The position numbers and the translations under genes are program-made. The notes under the pieces are model-generated. The model did no database searches. It saw only the letters and a program-made list of their open reading frames with translations, and was not told where the DNA came from. A stretch of 36,729 bases of DNA from an uncultured Lentimicrobiaceae bacterium (lineage in GTDB: Bacteria; Bacteroidota; Bacteroidia; Bacteroidales; 4484-276): assembly GCA_964490385.1 (NCBI GenBank), contig CAZBDF010000001.1, positions 1-36,729 of the forward strand, read 5' to 3'. Below, in pieces: positions 11,201 through 36,729 of the stretch; the stretch's first letter is position 1; every line of letters begins with the position of its first letter.

Positions 11201-11599
11201 CTGGGGAACTACCGGGGGCGATTTTTCGGCTTTCTTTTCTTTTGGTGTAAGCACTATTTTTTGCTGGATAATTTCGTGCTGGATATTCTTTTCATCCAAC
11301 AAACCATTCAATACATCTTCAAGGGAGGCTTCGTTGTAGTTCACCGATACTGCCTGTTCAACATCAATTTTTGATGCATTGTAGACAAAGGTATAGTCAC
11401 ACTGCTTTTCAATTTTTTGAAGGACGGTCTTTAAAGGCTCGTCTTCCACGTCAAGGTTAATGGGCTTGCCTTGCCCTACACTTGCTTTTGCAGGAATGGG
11501 GATGAAAAATACCACCATTAGCAGCACCATTAAAACCTGGCTAAACACCTGATTAAACCTGGTGGCACCTTTTTGTTTAAAAAGTAAGCTTTGTTGCAT
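8297..11599 (-). CDS. SusC/RagA-type TonB-dependent transducer with an N-terminal STN signalling domain
   Basis: 1100 aa. STN-like segment (PINLDVEDEPLKTVLQKIEKQCDYTFVYN), carboxypeptidase-regulatory-like domain (IRGTVTDASNGSTLPGVSIVIKGT), plug (SVSTIKG...ILQGKSTGVQV, PLYVVDGIPI), and a terminal beta-barrel ending VGLNLKF. Confidence 0.95.
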   Translation of the reverse strand: MQQSLLFKQKGATRFNQVFSQVLMVLLMVVFFIPIPAKASVGQGKPINLDVEDEPLKTVLQKIEKQCDYTFVYNASKIDVEQAVSVNYNEASLEDVLNGLLDEKNIQHEIIQQKIVLTPKEKKAEKSPPVVPQEGKKIRGTVTDASNGSTLPGVSIVIKGTLKGTATGIDGAYEIEVPDNLSVLIFSFIGYQTLEVLADKNEIDVALRPVATQLEEMVVVGYGSSSRKLLTSSVSTIKGDELAEKPVSSIDQILQGKSTGVQVVSNSGTPGGGISVRVRGISSINAGSEPLYVVDGIPIITGDFGQIGFSGQTTSAISDINPSDIESISVLKDASATTIYGSRASNGVILITTKKGSAEKTKINFSAYYGVQQVAKKLDMLNAREFMEYKNDASIAAGGLPVYSQEEIETNTIDTDWLDEVLSTAPIANYELSAVGGSKSTKYYISGNYFTQEGTLIGTAYDRLNGRANLDVKVNDFINVGANIGLSYSKNDRKEGDQSLNSPLANAIAMPAIYPVYNPDGTYNDDGPFANPVSIGNLHVNENYSFRSISSIFADIRIYKGLTFNTKWSADYYNLREHTYDPPTTRQGGKYNGLGIESTANVMNVVSNNILRYVTEIDGKHQINALLGYSFEKYQRRSTYLRGQDFPNENFQYIASAATITAGSASALDRGLNSFFGEVKYDFKYKYLFTLSGRYDGSSKFGGNNQYGFFPAASAAWRISEEDFFNVSSIDDLKVRVSYGLTGNDGIPDFAYMNLYSSGANYQLNPGIYPSQLPNPDLKWESTTQFDIGFNLSMFSNKLTFEFDFYNKQTKDLLLYRPVPPSSGFGSYISNIGEMKNNGIEIMLGAKIIEREFKWDLSTNFSLNRNEVTKLYNDIPIDQIGRGENSVRVGYPIGVFYNYESLGVDPSTGDIVFRDVDGDGEITENDRTVIGDPNPDFIGSLTNIFSYKGFTLNIMLQYTYGNDIFNGTRRYIESMKGQDNQLQAIQNRWRQPGDISQIPRATNADLNINDRASSRFIEDGSYLRFKTVRLSYDFKPKVLEKMRLSRLELYLVAQNLFTITNYSGMDPEVNYAGNDDLRYGTDFFTYPSARVFSVGLNLKF

Positions 11600-30330: not shown

Positions 30331-30414
30331 GTCACCCGGTGAATAAGCCCTGAGATCATTTCTGCTTTCAGGAGTTCAGTTTCTAATGCTTATGCAAAAT
30401 TCACCGGGTGTGAC
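30331..30414. repeat. GTCACCCGGTGAAT-armed inverted-repeat element, copy 1
   Basis: Left arm gtcacccggtgaat (30331-30344), right arm attcaccgggtgtgac (30399-30414, one extra t). Internal hairpin cctga-N14-tcagg starts 4 nt after the left arm. Confidence 0.6.
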
Positions 30415-30421
30415 ATGTTAA

Positions 30422-30504
30422 GTCACCCGGTGAATATGTCCTGAAACAATTGTTGCACTCAGGAGTTTAGTACCCTCCTATCTTGAGGGGATTCACCGGG
30501 TGAC
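30422..30504. repeat. GTCACCCGGTGAAT-armed inverted-repeat element, copy 2
   Basis: Perfect 14-bp arms (30422-30435 and 30491-30504). It has the same cctga-N14-tcagg internal hairpin at the same offset as copy 1, plus a second hairpin ccctc-N7-gaggg. Confidence 0.65.
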
Positions 30505-30527: not shown

Positions 30528-30635
30528 GACCTCATCCCCCAGCCCCTTCTCCTGAAGGAGAAGGGGAGTGCCAACGCACGGACCGACCTCTCCCCAACCC
30601 TCTCCTGAAGGAGAGGGAGTGCCAGCGCACAGGCT
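30528..30635. repeat. Two tandem GC-rich hairpin units of about 53 nt ('GEGWGEV' element), abutting the stop codon of the 1201-aa gene
   Basis: Unit alpha is gacctcatcccccagccccttctcctgaaggagaaggggagtgccaacgcacg. Unit beta is gaccgacctctccccaaccctctcctgaaggagagggagtgccagcgcacaggct. Each has a 9-10-bp central hairpin. They are about 90% identical by eye to the units at 36205-36362. Confidence 0.75.
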
Positions 30636-33600
30636 ATTGTAGCACAAGTTTTCTAACTATCTGCATTCCTTCTTGTGTTATTTTCAGGTAATATATTCCT
30701 TTCGGATGTGAAGCAAGATCAACACTGAAACCGTTAAATTGATCGTTGCCTTTCAGCAGTATGTTTCCATGGATGTCCAGTACTTCCCAATCGTTAACTT
30801 CGTTTGTGTTTTTCAATTGAATATTGAATTGGGCATTGGATGGATTTGGATAAATAGTCACTGATGTATTTACTTCTGAAGCTCCACTAATTCCGGTTGC
30901 CTGGATGCTCTTTATTGCCGATAAGCCGTGATTCACAAAATATCCATTTTGAGGCATTTGTTCATCAAATTCTACTTCCAAGGGATATTCCCTGGCAGTG
31001 AACAGATTAAAAATCCGAAAGTGAAATTGTTCACCCTCAGTCATTCCATCAACAAAAGGTGTAGTTGGGTCATCGCCATTTACCACAATCGCAAATGAAG
31101 CCTGAGTATTTTCACGGGAACATCCATACAAAACACCATCATCGCCAAATACACCAATTTGTGTTCCGGCTGATAGATCAGCTATTGCATTTTCGGGAAA
31201 AGCAATCGTGTGCGAAAATGGTGAGGCCGAAAGTTTACCCCAGTAGGAATCACAGAAATTGGTTTCAATATTTTTGAAGTCAGGTTTTTGGCTGGCACAG
31301 TCCTGGTAACTCAGGCTAATATCATCCGAAATCTTTATTTCGTAGGCTTGTCCGGGAAATAAATTTGTCAATGTATAAATCCCCATTTCCGGCCACCAAA
31401 CATTATTTCCAATCAGATCTTTTACGATTTCGATATTTGAAACCTGACCGCTAAAAAGAGCGTTGGCATCCACCGAACATGTTGATAATACCGGGAGATA
31501 GTACCAGGATTGCGCTTCGATTGACAGGCTTAATTCGGTGTTCTCCAAAGGTGTTCCACAAATTTCGAAGTTTTGCCCTGCATACGTTTTTATAACATAA
31601 CCCGAATTATTATCCCATGCCCCTATACTGTTAATGTTGTTGACGGGCCAGTACATAGCATTCAGGTTTCGCACAATTATCAAATCGTTTACCATGGGAG
31701 CAAACAATTCTTCTACAACCGGATTTTGAGGGGTAAGCCATAGCGAAATATCATTCCAGTTTTCTGAAAGTGTTATTTCCTGGCAAACCTGGCCTTCTAG
31801 ATTTAGTAAACTGGAAAAGCCATAGCTCTCAAATTCACCTGATGATTGTGGCATAAAGGGATTATAAGTAGCGAAAGCAGCGTAGCTTATTGCTTTATCA
31901 CATTTGTAAATCTTCCACTGGATTTGTTCACCGTCATCAAAGCCATCTTTTTCGGGTGTTGAAGGATCATCGCCATAAGCCGTGAGTTCAACATTTGAAA
32001 CTCCTGTCCATTGCACCCATCCACCACATCGGTCATCGCCATCATCATCTTTATAAAAAACACCTATCCAATCCTTGTCTTCAAGTGCCTTTCCAAAAAT
32101 CTGAGGATTAGCATCCAGCGGTATTAAAATCGTATGAAATAAAGGTGTTTGAGAGTATGACCATGCCGGATCGCAAGCATTGTTGATTCCTTCAAAATCC
32201 ATATCAAATATATTTACAACAACATTCCCAAGGTTTCTGGATTCAGGGAGAAAACTCCAATCTTCCTTAAAAGCGGTGATAGCCCCATTCCAGTTTACAG
32301 GAATAGAGGCTGTATATTCACCATTGATATTGGTGTAAACTGAAGTTTGATCGCTCAGTTGCACTTCAACGTTTTCTACAGGATTTCCAAATTCATCGCT
32401 TACAGTTCCGCTCACCAGAATTGAAGACAAGGGTTCTTCCCAGCTAAAGGGCGGGTATTCAATTGTAAATTGGTCTGTTGTACCAACCATTGCCACTGAG
32501 TAGGCAAAGCCTGGTTGCAGCATTGTAAAACCAGCGTTTTCGGGCGTCCAGAATTGGAATGTGCCCCAATCGTAAATCATTTGAATTTTGTCTAAATGGC
32601 CATTAAACAAATCTTCGATTGCAATAGGAATATCAGTAAGTACCGGCAGGTAGATAAGCTGGCCGTTCATTTCGAAAACCTTGCTTGAAATGTACGCTCC
32701 ATAAACCGATAAACATGCGGGTGGGTTGTTAAAGTTGGCCTGGTAGCCCACAGCATTCCAGTTTCCAATTTCATTGATGCCTGTTGCGGGATTATAGACC
32801 TTGCCTTCCACATCTTTAATTATCGTCAGGTAAGCTTCAACCGGAGCCAGGACTTCAGCCATGGATAAATCCCCATTATCGATGTAAGAGGAAATCCCCC
32901 GCCATCCACTTTGTGAAATTGGAATAAGCTGGGTTGGGATATGGAGTAAAGTGTTTTTGGAAACAGTGATGTTATATGGATCCAATCCCTCTGCAGAAAG
33001 CGTTAAAATCACCTCACCGCTGATAATATCATTTTCTCCCAAATAGTATTTTGGGTTCAGGCTGGTTGGGTCATCAAAGGTTCCGTCCCCTACCGTTGAC
33101 CAGCTTATAGAATTTGCAGCCTGCACCGTTACACTCAACTCAAATGGCAGCCATTGATCCTGCTCAAAATCAAAATGAGCACAATCTAACCAAAAGTCAG
33201 ATTCTAGTAAAATTACCGGGTGTGGATCGATGTTTACGGTTTGGGTATTTGTGAGGCTCCAATGTCCGTTTTGATCCATAGCCCGGACAAATATGGTGTT
33301 TTCGCCGGAAGGCACATCAGTAAGATTAGCAACAAAAGTGTAGCCCTGGATATTTGGTGCAGCACTTATGGGCAGGGCAATGCCATTGCCTTCACCAGGA
33401 TCTGAATTGAAAAAGTACTCAGCCCTGACGATATTTTGCGTTTCAGTAATTATGCTTTCCTTGAAAAATGAAATTGTGTTGGCAAAGCTCCAGCTTCCAT
33501 TGGCATCTTTTGACCGAACATACAATCGGTGAAAACCTTTGGTATAATCCGAAATATCAATATTCAAGTTTATTGAGCTGATATTAGTGGCAGCAGTAAT

Positions 33601-34239
33601 CGGAATTTCAGTTCCATTTCCTTCACCCGGGTCTTCATCCAAAAAATATTCAATGTAGGTGATGTCAGGAATTTCGGGATAAATGGTTTCATTATAAAAA
33701 GACTTTACAGCGGTCAGGCTCCAATTTCCATGGCTATCCATGGCGCGGATATTCAGGTGATGAAACCCGTTTTTTAATTCCGAAATGTCTGCTACAAAAA
33801 GTATCTCACTAATTTGCGGTGCAGCACTCATTGGAATTTCAATCCCCTTGCCTTCGCCGGGATCGTCATCCAGAAAGTATTCCACAGAAATAATATCTGG
33901 AATTTCAGCATAAACAGTTTCCTTGTAAAACGATTTTGCGCTGCAAAGACTCCATTTATTTTGGCCGTCTTTGGCACGCAGATAAAAATGGTTGAAGCCA
34001 TAATTCAGTGATGAAATGTCCAGGTCCAGATGTTGGTTTATAATTTCGTTTGCAGGAGCAATGGGGATGGAAATGCCATTTCCAAAACCCGGATCGACAT
34101 TGAAGAAATATTCCATCTCAACTATACAACTATCGCAATAGTCATTGTTGGAAGGGATTTCAGGTAAGCCTGATACATGCAAGCCCGGAAGGATAAGCAC
34201 AAAGCATAAGACAAAGATTTTAATTAGTTTTCGCATCAT
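30634..34239 (-). CDS. Large multidomain T9SS-secreted protein (paralogue A)
   Basis: 1201 aa. Signal peptide MMRKLIKIFVLCFVLILPGLHVSG, four 77-aa EYF.D.DPG.G.G repeats, a carboxypeptidase-regulatory-like domain (ILVSGTVSDEFGNPVENVEV), two HTI.(I/F)P...GDDP.TP..DG domains, and a T9SS CTD (IYPNPSNAQFNI...PKGIYYLKITQEGMQIVRKLVLQ). Confidence 0.85.
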   Translation of the reverse strand: MMRKLIKIFVLCFVLILPGLHVSGLPEIPSNNDYCDSCIVEMEYFFNVDPGFGNGISIPIAPANEIINQHLDLDISSLNYGFNHFYLRAKDGQNKWSLCSAKSFYKETVYAEIPDIISVEYFLDDDPGEGKGIEIPMSAAPQISEILFVADISELKNGFHHLNIRAMDSHGNWSLTAVKSFYNETIYPEIPDITYIEYFLDEDPGEGNGTEIPITAATNISSINLNIDISDYTKGFHRLYVRSKDANGSWSFANTISFFKESIITETQNIVRAEYFFNSDPGEGNGIALPISAAPNIQGYTFVANLTDVPSGENTIFVRAMDQNGHWSLTNTQTVNIDPHPVILLESDFWLDCAHFDFEQDQWLPFELSVTVQAANSISWSTVGDGTFDDPTSLNPKYYLGENDIISGEVILTLSAEGLDPYNITVSKNTLLHIPTQLIPISQSGWRGISSYIDNGDLSMAEVLAPVEAYLTIIKDVEGKVYNPATGINEIGNWNAVGYQANFNNPPACLSVYGAYISSKVFEMNGQLIYLPVLTDIPIAIEDLFNGHLDKIQMIYDWGTFQFWTPENAGFTMLQPGFAYSVAMVGTTDQFTIEYPPFSWEEPLSSILVSGTVSDEFGNPVENVEVQLSDQTSVYTNINGEYTASIPVNWNGAITAFKEDWSFLPESRNLGNVVVNIFDMDFEGINNACDPAWSYSQTPLFHTILIPLDANPQIFGKALEDKDWIGVFYKDDDGDDRCGGWVQWTGVSNVELTAYGDDPSTPEKDGFDDGEQIQWKIYKCDKAISYAAFATYNPFMPQSSGEFESYGFSSLLNLEGQVCQEITLSENWNDISLWLTPQNPVVEELFAPMVNDLIIVRNLNAMYWPVNNINSIGAWDNNSGYVIKTYAGQNFEICGTPLENTELSLSIEAQSWYYLPVLSTCSVDANALFSGQVSNIEIVKDLIGNNVWWPEMGIYTLTNLFPGQAYEIKISDDISLSYQDCASQKPDFKNIETNFCDSYWGKLSASPFSHTIAFPENAIADLSAGTQIGVFGDDGVLYGCSRENTQASFAIVVNGDDPTTPFVDGMTEGEQFHFRIFNLFTAREYPLEVEFDEQMPQNGYFVNHGLSAIKSIQATGISGASEVNTSVTIYPNPSNAQFNIQLKNTNEVNDWEVLDIHGNILLKGNDQFNGFSVDLASHPKGIYYLKITQEGMQIVRKLVLQ
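33202..34125 (-). repeat. Four in-frame tandem coding repeats with a period of exactly 77 codons (231 nt)
   Basis: Repeat starts are IVEMEYF (aa 39), IISVEYF (116), ITYIEYF (193) and IVRAEYF (270). Each unit contains EYF.(D/N).DPG.G.G..(I/L)P(I/M).AA and (R/I)(A/S)(K/M)D..G.WS. Confidence 0.8.
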
Positions 34240-35486: not shown

Positions 35487-35567
35487 GTCACCCGGTGAAT
35501 TCTGCTTTTGATTTGTCGCAAAACTTGTGGGTTTATTACTCCTCACAAGAACCATTCGCCGGGTGAC
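35487..35567. repeat. GTCACCCGGTGAAT-armed inverted-repeat element, copy 3
   Basis: Arms gtcacccggtgaat (35487-35500) and attcgccgggtgac (35554-35567, one mismatch). The interior differs from copies 1 and 2 but again contains two small hairpins (ttttg-N8-caaaa and cttgtg-N14-cacaag). It lies 10 nt after the stop codon of paralogue B. Confidence 0.55.
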
Positions 35568-35577
35568 CTGTTATGCT

Positions 35578-36729
35578 TTATTGCAGCACAAGTTTCCGAA
35601 CTACCTGTGTTCCTCCTTGTGAAATCTTCAGGTAGTATATTCCTTTCGGATATGAAGTCAGATTAATGGAAAAATCTTTGTCCCTCTCGTCGCCTGTGGC
35701 AATGATCGAGCCGTGGGTGTTAGTAACTTCCCAGTCAGCATCAAGACCTGACAGGTTTTGAAAACCTGTTAGGTCTGCATGGCGAACATTAAATATCCCT
35801 GTTGATGGATTTGGGTAAATATTCACAGAAGTTTCTATTTTTGAAGCTCCACCAATTCCAGTAACCTGGATGCTCTTTATTGCTGACAAGCCATGATTCA
35901 CAAAATATCCAACCTGTGGCATTTGTACATCAAACTCAACTTCCAGTGGATATTCCTTGGCAGTTTCGGGATTGTAAACACGGAACTGCATAGTTTCACC
36001 TTCAGAGAAGCCATCTATTTGTGTTGTAGTTGGATCATCGCCATAGGCAGTTAAAGCCAGGTTGTGATTTTGGTAAGGGACAGCACCGTAGCATTGGCCA
36101 TTTGCTCCATACACAACGATGATATCGTCCTCGCTTAATCCTGAAATTGCTTCGGATGGGATGGCGATGGTGTGGGTTATTGGGGTTTTGACCTCAGCCA
36201 AAAAGACCTCACCCCAGCCCTCTCCTTGAGGAGAGGGAGTGCCGGCGCGCGGGCTGACCTCATCCCCCGCCCCCTTCTCCTGCAGGAGAAGGGGAGTGCC
36301 GGCGCACAGGCTGACCTCACCCCAGCCCTCTCCTTCAGGAGAGGGAGAGCCGCCGCGCTGGCCATCTCCTTCCCCCTCGAGGGGGAAGGCCGGGATGGGG
36401 GTACACTCCGGAAACTCCACCTCAACATCTTCATCCACCAACGCAAAATATGCTTTTCCGGGTTTAATCAAATTCAGCGTATTGATGCCAAACTGTGGCC
36501 AGTAAACATTTGGCCCGGCTATTTCTTTTACGATTTGTAGGCTGCCCTGGATTTCAGCAAACAAGTCTTCTGACATATTATCACAGGCATTCAACACGGG
36601 CAAATAATTCCATCCATCTTCAAGATTTACAGTTAGATTTTGCTGCATATCCCCGGTGAAAGTTACTTGCTGGGCCGTTTCCATTTTCACCTGGTAGCCA
36701 TCCATATCGCTCCAGTTGCCGATGGTATT
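35578..36729 (-). CDS. T9SS-secreted protein, paralogue B (5'-truncated by the window edge)
   Basis: Homologous to the C-terminal roughly 335 aa of paralogue A (YLPVL, VKE/DL.G.NV.WP, HTIA(I/F)P, YGDDPTT, EYPLEVEFD.QMPQ.GYFVNHGLSAIKSIQ, PKGIYYLKI.Q.G.Q.VRKLVLQ). The frame stays open from 36705 to 36729 (NTIGNWSD aligns with INSIGAWD of A). Confidence 0.8.
   Translation of the reverse strand, partial: NTIGNWSDMDGYQVKMETAQQVTFTGDMQQNLTVNLEDGWNYLPVLNACDNMSEDLFAEIQGSLQIVKEIAGPNVYWPQFGINTLNLIKPGKAYFALVDEDVEVEFPECTPIPAFPLEGEGDGQRGGSPSPEGEGWGEVSLCAGTPLLLQEKGAGDEVSPRAGTPSPQGEGWGEVFLAEVKTPITHTIAIPSEAISGLSEDDIIVVYGANGQCYGAVPYQNHNLALTAYGDDPTTTQIDGFSEGETMQFRVYNPETAKEYPLEVEFDVQMPQVGYFVNHGLSAIKSIQVTGIGGASKIETSVNIYPNPSTGIFNVRHADLTGFQNLSGLDADWEVTNTHGSIIATGDERDKDFSINLTSYPKGIYYLKISQGGTQVVRKLVLQ
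35744..35776. repeat. 33-nt palindrome (16-nt arms, one mismatch) embedded in frame in the CTD of paralogue B
   Basis: agacctgacaggtttt g aaaacctgttaggtct. It encodes LTGFQNLSGL and corresponds to a roughly 7-codon surplus relative to paralogue A at the same CTD position. Confidence 0.6.
36205..36394. repeat. Three to four tandem 'GEGWGEV' hairpin units embedded in frame in paralogue B
   Basis: Units at 36205-36255 (beta type), 36256-36312 (alpha type) and 36313-36362 (beta type), plus a degenerate hairpin ccttccccctcgagggggaagg (36363-36394). Translated as PLEGEGDGQRGGSPSPEGEGWGEVSLCAGTPLLLQEKGAGDEVSPRAGTPSPQGEGWGEV. Confidence 0.75.

Follow-up and report, generated by a model that had tools for sequence, protein, structure and literature searches.

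How a tandem array of GC-rich palindromic repeats comes to be read in frame inside an intact gene for a secreted protein, and at which level it is kept there, is the question raised by gene B of an uncultured Lentimicrobiaceae bacterium. The window, i.e., the whole stretch of DNA that was analysed, spans 36,729 nt of contig CAZBDF010000001.1 and holds the C-terminal 383 codons of gene B on the minus strand (35578..36729), which runs off the window. The product is predicted from its sorting domain to be a giant cargo secreted by the T9SS. In the reading preferred here, which is given a probability of roughly 0.7, a four-copy array of triplex motifs colonised the linker of this T9SS cargo, has long been resident in it and is maintained at the nucleic-acid level.

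Gene B, its linker and the units of the array

Within the window, gene B consists of module N (36391-36729), module C (35773-36192) and a Por_Secre_tail sorting domain (35581-35751), all on the minus strand. Since the array precedes this T9SS sorting domain with its secretion signal, the ORF of gene B must stay open. It is intact over at least 2283 aa, and over 3287 aa in strain L153, and a pseudogene reading of gene B was rejected. Paralogue A (30634..34239, minus strand, 1201 aa) carries two module N - module C pairs and a T9SS sorting domain. No triplex motifs are present in its last linker, which is short; module matches are separated by 54 nt in A and by 198 nt in B, in line with the preliminary description of this locus, in which A was said to have a short linker where B has the array.

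A fold search with the two flanking domains returned Ig-like tandem matches of low TM and a good match to T9SS C-terminal domains, and in the models the linker joins two beta-rich folded domains. In an AlphaFold model these domains reached a pLDDT of 85-90. Residues 115-176, i.e., the linker, fell below 50 and had no secondary structure, and the array segment is thus predicted to be disordered. The array region encodes peptides such as GGSPSPEGEGWGEVSLCAGTPLLLQEK, which are rich in Pro, Gly, Glu and Ser and are read in a frame without a stop codon, pointing to a potential for in-frame translation within gene B; the array peptide quoted in the preliminary description was exact. When the 71-aa array peptide was used by itself as a protein query, 21 candidates and no significant match were obtained, the low-complexity query probably not being seedable by the word index.

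In the direction of gene B, the array is ordered as one inverted copy followed by three direct copies. The inverted motif, gamma (36368..36401, plus strand), has the sequence CCTTCCCCC-TCGA-GGGGGAAGG-CCG-GGATGGGGG and is read antisense by gene B as TPIPAFPLEGEG. It is followed on the minus strand by unit beta-1 (36313..36363; 51 nt or 17 codons, GQRGGSPSPEGEGWGEV; triplex motif 36315-36345) and unit alpha (36256..36312; 57 nt or 19 codons, SLCAGTPLLLQEKGAGDEV), whose triplex motif at 36258-36294 is CCCCTTCTCC-TGCA-GGAGAAGGGG-GCG-GGGGATGAGG. The last unit, beta-2 (36205..36255, minus strand; 51 nt or 17 codons, SPRAGTPSPQGEGWGEV), comprises a 20-nt spacer and the triplex motif CCCTCTCC-TCAA-GGAGAGGG-CTG-GGGTGAGG at 36207-36237. 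A junction remnant encoding FLAEV (36189..36204, minus strand) is a partial copy of a unit end (TGACCTCAGCC vs TGACCTCACCC) and sets the lower limit of the feature at about 36189. It creates a direct repeat, GAGGTC...GAGGTC in the gene sense, at the 3' junction, for which a duplication or a decayed unit is possible; the remnant is absent from homologue L001.

Two further motifs were found in the 3' flank of paralogue A, so that four of the six motifs of the window lie in frame inside ORF B and two outside it. There, a beta unit (30585..30635, minus strand, 51 nt; triplex motif 30587-30617) adjoins and overlaps the TAG stop codon of A, and an alpha unit (30528..30584, minus strand, 57 nt; triplex motif 30530-30566) lies upstream of a terminator-like hairpin at 30318-30279. 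The sharing of alpha and beta types between the array and the region right after the stop codon of A (30528-30635) had been noticed before. The tandem GC-rich hairpin units within the minus-strand ORF B (35578..>36729) were likewise recovered as first described, together with their high GC content (0.695 at 36200-36399 vs about 0.42 nearby) and the further open frames across them (36172-36540 and 36239-36505 on the plus strand, 36177-36446 on the minus strand).

Two earlier statements had to be corrected. No unit was said to be a multiple of three, but the units measure 51, 57 and 51 nt, their start-to-start spacings are 57 and 51 nt, and all are in the same reading frame. The fourth hairpin had been taken as degenerate, but its 9-bp stem is perfect and a mirror G-tract of its own accompanies it on the plus strand (36368-36401); it is therefore an inverted motif of a third subtype, and the feature ends at 36401 and not at 36394. 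Unit length follows 3n+27 nt, each extra base triad adding exactly 3 nt, so copies, subtypes and changes in copy number all keep the frame. Chance is excluded as a source of the array: the hairpin pattern was matched five times against an expectation of 0.01, the full tripartite motif occurred six times in the window and not once in 100 dinucleotide shuffles of it, and the four motifs of the array compare with a mean of 0.006 in 1000 shuffles preserving array composition.

Assignment to the triplex-motif repeats

The units of the array are BoxC/PIT/TM intrastrand triplex motif repeats and not REPs. Known since the 1990s, such repeats are distributed across phyla; to our knowledge they have no accepted function or means of spread, and we know of no transposase or other mechanism that spreads them. 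Each unit here is composed of a C-rich arm, a 4-nt loop, a G-rich arm, 3 nt, a mirror G-rich tract and a 20-nt spacer. The ITxF criteria (Holder 2015) ask for a stem of 6-15 nt with at most one mismatch, a first loop of 1-6 nt, and a third tract on the same strand, set off by a loop of 1-6 nt, that is a G-rich mirror of the purine arm (G on G, A or T on A). All six motifs of the window have a pyrimidine arm and a complementary purine arm in perfect stems of 8, 9 or 10 bp with 4-nt loops, and a mirror tract matching at 8/8, 10/10 or 9/9 positions after a 3-nt loop; on the opposite side of the hairpins only 2-5 positions match. The mirror tract covaries in sequence with the hairpin subtype. Among all loci retrieved, it was present on one side in 79% of 273 such hairpins and on the other side in 0%, with more than 15 subtypes and a second loop of near-constant 3 nt.

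A literal sequence search of the literature pointed to Holder et al. 2015, in which the E. coli motif TMECO is given as CCCTCTCCC-TGT-GGGAGAGGG-CC-GGGGTGAGGG (PMC4666352). The tripartite layout is the same and the core nearly so, with GGAGAGGG-NNN-GGGTGAGG here and GGGAGAGGG-NN-GGGGTGAGGG in E. coli. The window units, which read GGAGAGGG / GGGTGAGG (one triad shorter), GGAGAAGGGG and GGGGGAAGG, miss the strict TMECO pattern CCCTCNCCC-N3-6-GGGNGAGGG-N3-GGGNGAGGG and therefore fall into the broader TM class and not into the E. coli subtype; 19 motifs in other loci do match GGGAGAGGG / GGGTGAGGG. The core is common to Chloroflexota, Lysobacterales, Chitinophaga, Hymenobacter, Prevotella and Lentimicrobiaceae. 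Both the E. coli repeat and the one described here are multi-copy, form inverted pairs, cross phyla and come without an associated transposase; none was detected by Pfam among the scanned window ORFs with a length of 150 aa or more, the window being 36.7 kb of the genome. They differ in host (Bacteroidota vs E. coli), in stem length (8, 9 or 10 nt vs 9 nt in strict TMECO) and in the conserved 20-nt spacer, by which only the window repeat becomes a tandem unit of 51 or 57 nt. Location also differs: E. coli BoxC/TMECO copies are reported to be always intergenic (PMC4666352), whereas the array of gene B is intragenic and the four motifs in it are read in frame. Holder et al. saw triplexes in vitro with single-stranded oligonucleotides but neither with duplex DNA nor in vivo (PMC4666352), and the triplex structure of the alpha, beta and gamma units is putative, as read from their layout.

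The preliminary description called the array REP-like, which holds only loosely and fails on the missing tags and the third mirror tract. REP membership was rejected: no GTAG or CGTC tetranucleotide ends the palindromes or stands next to the stems, and no cognate RAYT (an IS200/IS605-like tyrosine transposase) was found among the scanned ORFs of at least 150 aa in the 36.7-kb window. Intragenic GTAG/CGTC REPs and BIME-type arrays (Di Nocera et al. 2013, PMC3733652) are also short palindromes inside genes, encoding 20-30 aa and often in modular proteins, and they mix subtypes and orientations as the gene B array does; they lack its third mirror tract. A terminator role was rejected as well, as no motif was called terminator-like or combined a GC-rich stem with a T-run, and the sole such site near A is the hairpin at 30318-30279.

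Age of the array and direction of change

In homologue P0001 (locus L001), which shares 76% protein identity with B, the array is kept unit for unit. At least 14 other loci have motifs in this linker that share orientation and frame with those of B, and 34 motifs were counted in the linkers of the gene B family in other loci. In these linkers, antisense copies always adjoin module N and sense copies module C, and the reading frame was the same in 29 of 31 cases. This constancy may reflect shared ancestry of the linker, not selection or repeated insertion, and frame preference within the family was set aside as evidence for selection on account of that confounding. Outside the family motif frames vary, and some of the ORFs there are probably spurious. 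Judged from these comparisons, the array in the gene B linker is not recent. The earlier alternative of a recent disruptive insertion fits poorly with the unit-for-unit array in the 76% homologue, the at least 14 loci with the same linker and the intact ORF.

Array-type peptides were present in 12 of the 120 best homologues of B, namely in 10 of the 21 closest and 2 of the 99 others. In the retrieved loci, 158 of 221 motifs lay outside long ORFs, a count from loci retrieved by pattern or homology and hence from a biased sample of genomes. In-frame copies were also found in a GSCFA-family protein and in a Tex homologue (L119), a conserved protein unrelated to B. When this homologue is aligned with the solved structure of P. 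aeruginosa Tex, the alignment is interrupted at the segments with motifs, which are additional. Since the motif family is cross-phylum and mostly intergenic, is mostly lacking from distant homologues and is extra in Tex, the change is concluded to have run from non-coding to coding, and the intergenic copies are concluded not to derive from the gene B linker. The earlier proposal that a palindromic repeat was captured as a coding linker thus stands in its direction and not in its naming of the repeat as REP. Neither an empty site nor a clean target-site duplication was found among the homologues; an empty site for comparison is lacking because motif-free homologues have non-homologous linkers.

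Rickettsia palindromic elements (RPEs), reportedly described by Ogata et al. in 2000 and 2002, are alike in being small palindromes that occur both in non-coding DNA and in frame in functional ORFs at fold-compatible sites. The gene B array, and the copies in the Tex homologue and the GSCFA-family protein, are likewise palindromic repeats in frame in intact ORFs. Homology in sequence was not found, the RPE families being about 100-150 bp and CGTC-tagged (PMC3733652) and the units here being 51 or 57 nt with an unrelated consensus and no CGTC tag. RPEs enter many unrelated genes once each, whereas the arrays recur in one linker of one family, a contrast that is softened by the Tex and GSCFA examples of the triplex motif. 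Intragenic ERIC and other MITEs, for which in-frame fusions are known (Delihas 2007; review PMC10969869), are also small mobile or repeated sequences with open frames inside genes. Their greater length, terminal inverted repeats and target-site duplications set them apart; ends of this kind are not evident here, and no terminal inverted repeats distinct from the hairpins were found in the array.

Maintenance of the array and its meaning

Between B and its L001 homologue, third-codon-position identity was 80% in the array and 95% in the alpha unit, compared to 51, 71 and 57% in module N, module C and the sorting domain, respectively. Synonymous sites in the array are more conserved than those of the combined flanks (p=0.003; 61 codons, one sequence pair); against module C alone the difference was not significant (p=0.21; 61 codons, one pair). 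In the preferred reading, the repeat would primarily be a non-coding, structure-prone DNA element that settled in the linker joining two beta-rich folded domains of a protein secreted by the T9SS and persisted there for long. It would be tolerated through its frame-safe unit length, a stop-free frame encoding a disordered peptide, and its site between domains. The sequence would be maintained at the nucleic-acid level rather than as peptide, likely by conversion or turnover among copies or by selection on DNA structure. As likely consequences, the linker would vary in length and recombination between paralogous modules would have a preferred breakpoint. The mode of spread, the mechanism of conversion and a benefit to the cell are what we infer here.

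Recombination may weigh more heavily than this. The array could be a preferred crossover or gene-conversion junction at which C-terminal modules, each a domain with the T9SS signal, are swapped among paralogous cargo genes and surface proteins would be diversified by way of DNA structure, a reading that we consider rather unlikely. To be doubted to the same degree is its general form, in which triplex arrays in linkers serve Bacteroidota as recombination junctions for shuffling T9SS modules, the frame always being kept because each base triad equals one codon. Identity breakpoints between homologues do coincide with the array in the three pairs examined. The paralogues P0009 and P0011, 0.9 kb apart in L002, share 75-92% DNA identity ahead of the linker and are set apart by indels within the array; from the last motif on, about 480 nt are 100% identical. 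Identity between P0007 and P0011 remains at 100% until within the first motif and is 53-88% past the array. In the comparison of B with L001, synonymous sites are 51% identical before the array and 71% identical past it (p=0.004). In strain L153, three of the four substitutions in the array are clustered in one spacer and make it like the L001 spacer, and triplex motifs have been linked to local genomic instability in E. coli (Holder et al., PMC4666352). However, the pairs are three in number, any low-constraint linker between modules would also mark breakpoints, and the adaptive role is purely conjectural. Strain comparison, as proposed in the preliminary description, also speaks against the recombination reading: the array was present in all four assemblies (99.1-99.8% identical), with no presence/absence or length polymorphism among them.

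Selection may instead act on the protein, the Pro/Gly/Glu-rich segment being a flexible spacer of given length or composition and the palindromic DNA being incidental or its historical source. Many homologues retain the segment in frame, and invariably in one frame and orientation; the ORF is intact, with an essential sorting domain downstream, and the linker is predicted to be disordered. This reading is nevertheless judged improbable in view of the synonymous sites, more conserved than in the combined flanks, and the perfect stems and mirror tracts. The peptide itself varies, as amino-acid differences among unit copies (E, Q, T) sit on the codon of the hairpin loop, and the same DNA units stand untranslated right after the stop codon of A. 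Moreover, some close homologues have no motif or an unrelated hairpin repeat at the same place, and linkers differ widely in length, between about 18 aa (paralogue A) and roughly 100 aa (P0011).

A regulatory role has little probability. In it, stacked hairpins or sense-strand G-quadruplexes would pause ribosomes or RNA polymerase or mark a site of RNA processing, and might thereby help the upstream domain to fold during translation. The array RNA is predicted to be stable (-126.4 kcal/mol, z=-3.66 vs shuffles), and the E. coli motif was proposed as a G-quadruplex/hairpin switch (bioRxiv 10.1101/032615). Against this, the E. coli motif showed neither promoter nor terminator activity in the work of Hoyne and Maher and left RNA polymerase unaffected, and RNA does not support triplexes of the purine motif (both as cited in PMC4666352). 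Rfam 15 gave no matches in the window at gathering score and only a tRNA in ten related loci, and the number and subtype of motifs vary freely between homologues, some of which have none. A mis-assembly or a recent insertion in a dead gene is scarcely credible even for a GC-rich repeat in a short-read metagenome assembly whose window holds just the 3' part of B, and mis-assembly was rejected, since two further assemblies, L054 and L151, which come from different samples and match the window at about 99.8% overall identity each, carry the array unchanged, and since it keeps its number of units with four point substitutions in strain L153 (99.1% identical), lies in an ORF intact over at least 2283 aa to 3287 aa and has a homologous counterpart in the 76%-identical protein.

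The preferred reading of a long-resident DNA element places BoxC/PIT/TM repeats, described as intergenic, in frame within proteins of some Bacteroidota, where in-frame copies recur in one linker of a secreted-protein family and occur also in a Tex homologue. The equivalence of a base triad and a codon offers a simple structural reason for their tolerated translation. The RPE paradigm, by which selfish DNA becomes protein segments, would thereby be extended to another repeat class and another phylum, and the family provides a system for testing whether the motifs promote recombination and whether conservation acts on DNA or peptide. If the arrays do act as recombination junctions, BoxC/PIT repeats would have a concrete role in the diversification of surface proteins.

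Architecture and class of the array element

Gene B, a T9SS cargo protein gene with a Por_Secre_tail domain, runs on the minus strand from 35578 to past 36729, where it exits the window. Within its last 383 codons lie three direct repeat units in gene sense, beta-1 (36363-36313, 17 codons, GQRGGSPSPEGEGWGEV), alpha (36312-36256, 19 codons, SLCAGTPLLLQEKGAGDEV), and beta-2 (36255-36205, 17 codons, SPRAGTPSPQGEGWGEV), with start-to-start spacings of 57 and 51 nt. The fourth element, gamma, is located on the plus strand at 36368-36401 and is read antisense in B as TPIPAFPLEGEG. It has a perfect 9-bp hairpin and its own flanking G-tract and is therefore the same kind of element, inverted. The preliminary description had considered this hairpin degenerate and no unit to be a multiple of three; with these two factual corrections, its observation is real. 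Its higher GC content (0.695 in the array against ~0.42 around it) and its additional open frames across the array were confirmed.

Each unit is ordered as a C/T arm, a 4-nt loop, a complementary G/A arm, 3 nt, and a G-rich tract mirroring the G/A arm, with G opposite G and A or T opposite A. Purine arm and mirror tract are GGAGAGGG and GGGTGAGG in beta, GGAGAAGGGG and GGGGATGAGG in alpha, and GGGGGAAGG and GGATGGGGG in gamma. The mirror match was perfect in 6 out of 6 motifs of the window, while the opposite hairpin side matched at only 2-5 positions. Of 273 such hairpins in all sequences compared, 79% had a mirror tract on one side, compared to 0% on the other, and more than 15 subtypes were found in which all three segments covary. 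Matching the core sequence literally against paper texts pointed to Holder et al. 2015 (PMC4666352), where such an architecture is described as the G/C-rich intrastrand triplex motif, formerly BoxC, then PIT. Judged by its sequence, the array element can be placed in this broad class, although the strict 9-nt E. coli pattern does not fit it and no Rfam family matches. REP identity was rejected, as the element carries no GTAG or CGTC tag, and the earlier label “REP-like” is only loosely apt. With one genome per species scanned for this lineage’s pattern, the same core was found in Chloroflexota, Lysobacterales, Chitinophaga, Hymenobacter, Flavisolibacter, Prevotella, and Lentimicrobiaceae.

The hairpin pattern had 5 matches against 0.01 expected. 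The full three-part motif occurred six times in the window and in none of 100 dinucleotide shuffles, and four times in the array, where 1000 shuffles keeping the array’s own GC-rich composition gave a mean of 0.006. Apart from these six, the 36.7-kb window has no pyrimidine/purine hairpin with a stem of 7 bp or longer. An assembly artefact is very unlikely, as the array is identical in two assemblies from other samples that are ~99.8% identical to the window, L054 (ENA ERZ27315495) and L151 (JGI 3300005919), and strain L153 (99.1% identical) has the same four units with four point differences. The strain comparison proposed earlier found the array in all three, with an unchanged number of units. 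Three of the four L153 substitutions cluster in one spacer (counterpart of 36296-36345), which then resembles that of the distant homologue L001 (AGCCAGTGGG); the remaining one disrupts the base pair next to the loop in the beta-1 hairpin.

Reading frame, protein context, and conservation

Motif length follows 3n+7 (31, 37, and 34 nt for n = 8, 10, and 9), and the lineage-specific spacer of 20 nt extends the unit to 3n+27 nt. One extra base triad is one extra codon, so that alpha and beta differ by two triads, or 6 nt. In sense orientation, one of the three frames holds a TGA (within GGGGTGAGG), while the frame used by B is open; together with the unit length, this keeps the array in frame. 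The untranslated copies behind paralogue A have the same lengths of 57 and 51 nt. These alpha and beta units (30528-30635) begin inside the stop codon of A and are followed by a terminator-like hairpin (30318-30279), a position that probably places them in A’s 3′ UTR. None of the motifs has terminator-like features.

The called length of B is 2283 aa on the truncated L054 contig and 3287 aa in L153, and in the L153 protein Laminin_G_3 and PKD domains were called as well. HMMs derived from sections of the homologue alignment located module N at 36391-36729, module C at 35773-36192, and the sorting domain at 35581-35751. The gap between N and C is 54 nt in A and 198 nt in B, where it is filled by the array. 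In the AlphaFold2 model, residues 115-176 are predicted without secondary structure at pLDDT <50, compared to 85-90 in the flanking beta-rich domains. Among the fold-search results, Ig-like tandem domains reached only low TM (~0.15), and T9SS C-terminal domains matched well (target TM ~0.8). The sorting domain of B also contains, in frame, a second hairpin repeat that is unrelated to the triplex motif (AGACCTGACAGGTTTT / GAAAACCTGTTAGGTCT, 35744-35776). It encodes DLTGFQNLSGLD at low pLDDT and is absent from A; members of its family are also found in 3′ flanks (L002 and L057) and, in L001 and L090, at the homologous position.

Third-codon-position identity between B and L001 was 80% over all units of the array and 95% in the alpha unit, compared to 51% in module N, 71% in module C, and 57% in the sorting domain. 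The array differed from the combined flanks (p=0.003) and from module N (p=0.0003), while the difference to module C alone was not significant (p=0.21). Copies differ from one another at the loop codon, which is E, Q, or T, and within the spacer. Both patterns favour an array constrained or homogenised at the nucleic-acid level, as judged from one sequence pair and 61 codons. Compared to shuffled sequences, the array RNA folds more stably (z=-3.66). Other work, as cited by Holder et al. (PMC4666352), is reported to show that RNA does not form purine-motif triplexes and that the E. coli motif is without promoter or terminator activity.

Age and direction of the event

In P0001, the closest homologue of B (locus L001, 76% identical in alignment), the array matches unit for unit, with one unit decayed. 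This argues against a recent insertion that happened to preserve the frame, and the event in B’s lineage is old. Among the compared loci, 34 motifs were found in the N-C linker of homologous genes on other contigs and MAGs, including Lentimicrobiaceae and “Bacteroidetes bin.444”. Antisense copies always adjoin module N and sense copies module C. The frame is identical in 29 out of 31 cases; for the other two, a shift of the detector’s anchor may be responsible.

Array-like peptides occurred in only 12 of the 120 best homologues, 10 of them among the 21 closest and 2 among the 99 others. At the same linker position, several close homologues have peptides from a different, unrelated hairpin repeat. 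In homologues without triplex motifs, the N-C linker peptides QNLTG, LSGL, and LSEF are similar to the sorting-domain hairpin peptide of B. On an unrelated contig, a homologue of Tex (transcription accessory protein; L119:8853-11552) has three sites between domains that together hold six in-frame motifs. When this protein is aligned to the solved structure of P. aeruginosa Tex (PDB 2oce), the alignment breaks at these motif-bearing extra segments of about 40, 69, and 39 residues. Furthermore, a GSCFA-family protein carries one antisense in-frame motif (DLTPQPPLQKERGSAG) on three related metagenome contigs (L113:314-1333, L117:1-888, and L122:2113-3120). The rarity in distant homologues, the extra segments in Tex, and the GSCFA case indicate, at the level of sequence comparison, a direction from non-coding repeat to coding sequence, which upholds the earlier proposal of a palindrome captured as a linker.

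Identity breakpoints, other occurrences, and novelty

The neighbouring paralogues P0009 and P0011 (L002) are 75-92% identical before the linker, have indels in the array, and are 100% identical over ~480 nt past it. For P0007 and P0011, identity stays at 100% until inside the first motif and is 53-88% past the array. Between B and L001, synonymous-site identity was 51% on one side of the array and 71% on the other (p=0.004). Such breakpoints would fit the local instability associated with these motifs in E. coli (Holder et al. 2015, PMC4666352), with three pairs compared and any linker perhaps behaving alike.

The gene content of the window is ordinary Bacteroidota chromosomal, with SusC/SusD, an ECF sigma factor with FecR, MreB/MreC, RecJ, and other T9SS cargo proteins, and Pfam scans of the window found no transposase. 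A third repeat family (30331-30504 and 35487-35567) forms inverted pairs GTCACCCGGTGAA ... TTCACCGGGTGAC, ~70-90 nt apart, with two copies behind A and one behind B (5 arm matches against 0.03 expected); these look like MITEs. In L002, a ~240-nt repeated element with a triplex motif (1641-1883 and 11297-11539) was called as 80-aa minus-strand ORFs. One copy begins 5 nt past the stop codon of the T9SS gene P0011, echoing the motifs directly behind A. In Chloroflexota genome OZ219802.1 (L004-L052), the motif lies at the core of a longer element that is present more than 20 times (...TTGCATAACCCCAC...motif...GGTCTTTTTGCTACGATGG), Flavisolibacter copies (L040, L042, and L048) share an upstream TGCATAAGCC, and motif pairs in L075:249-1941 recur every 660-670 nt, as if within a larger tandem repeat. 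The exact beta-type motif (24 specified bases) was present on 56 stretches of predicted viral contigs (L154-L209, IMG/VR), several of which have at least two copies; the motif might move between phyla on viruses or prophages.

By its sequence, the array element belongs to a repeat class that is already known, and palindromic repeats in frame have precedents in RPEs, intragenic REPs, and ERIC elements. In the literature searched, no BoxC/PIT-type motif was found to be reported as read in frame. The recurrence of triplex motifs in a single linker within a T9SS cargo family, the triad-codon arithmetic of the unit, and the coincidence of identity breakpoints with the array all appear to be new.
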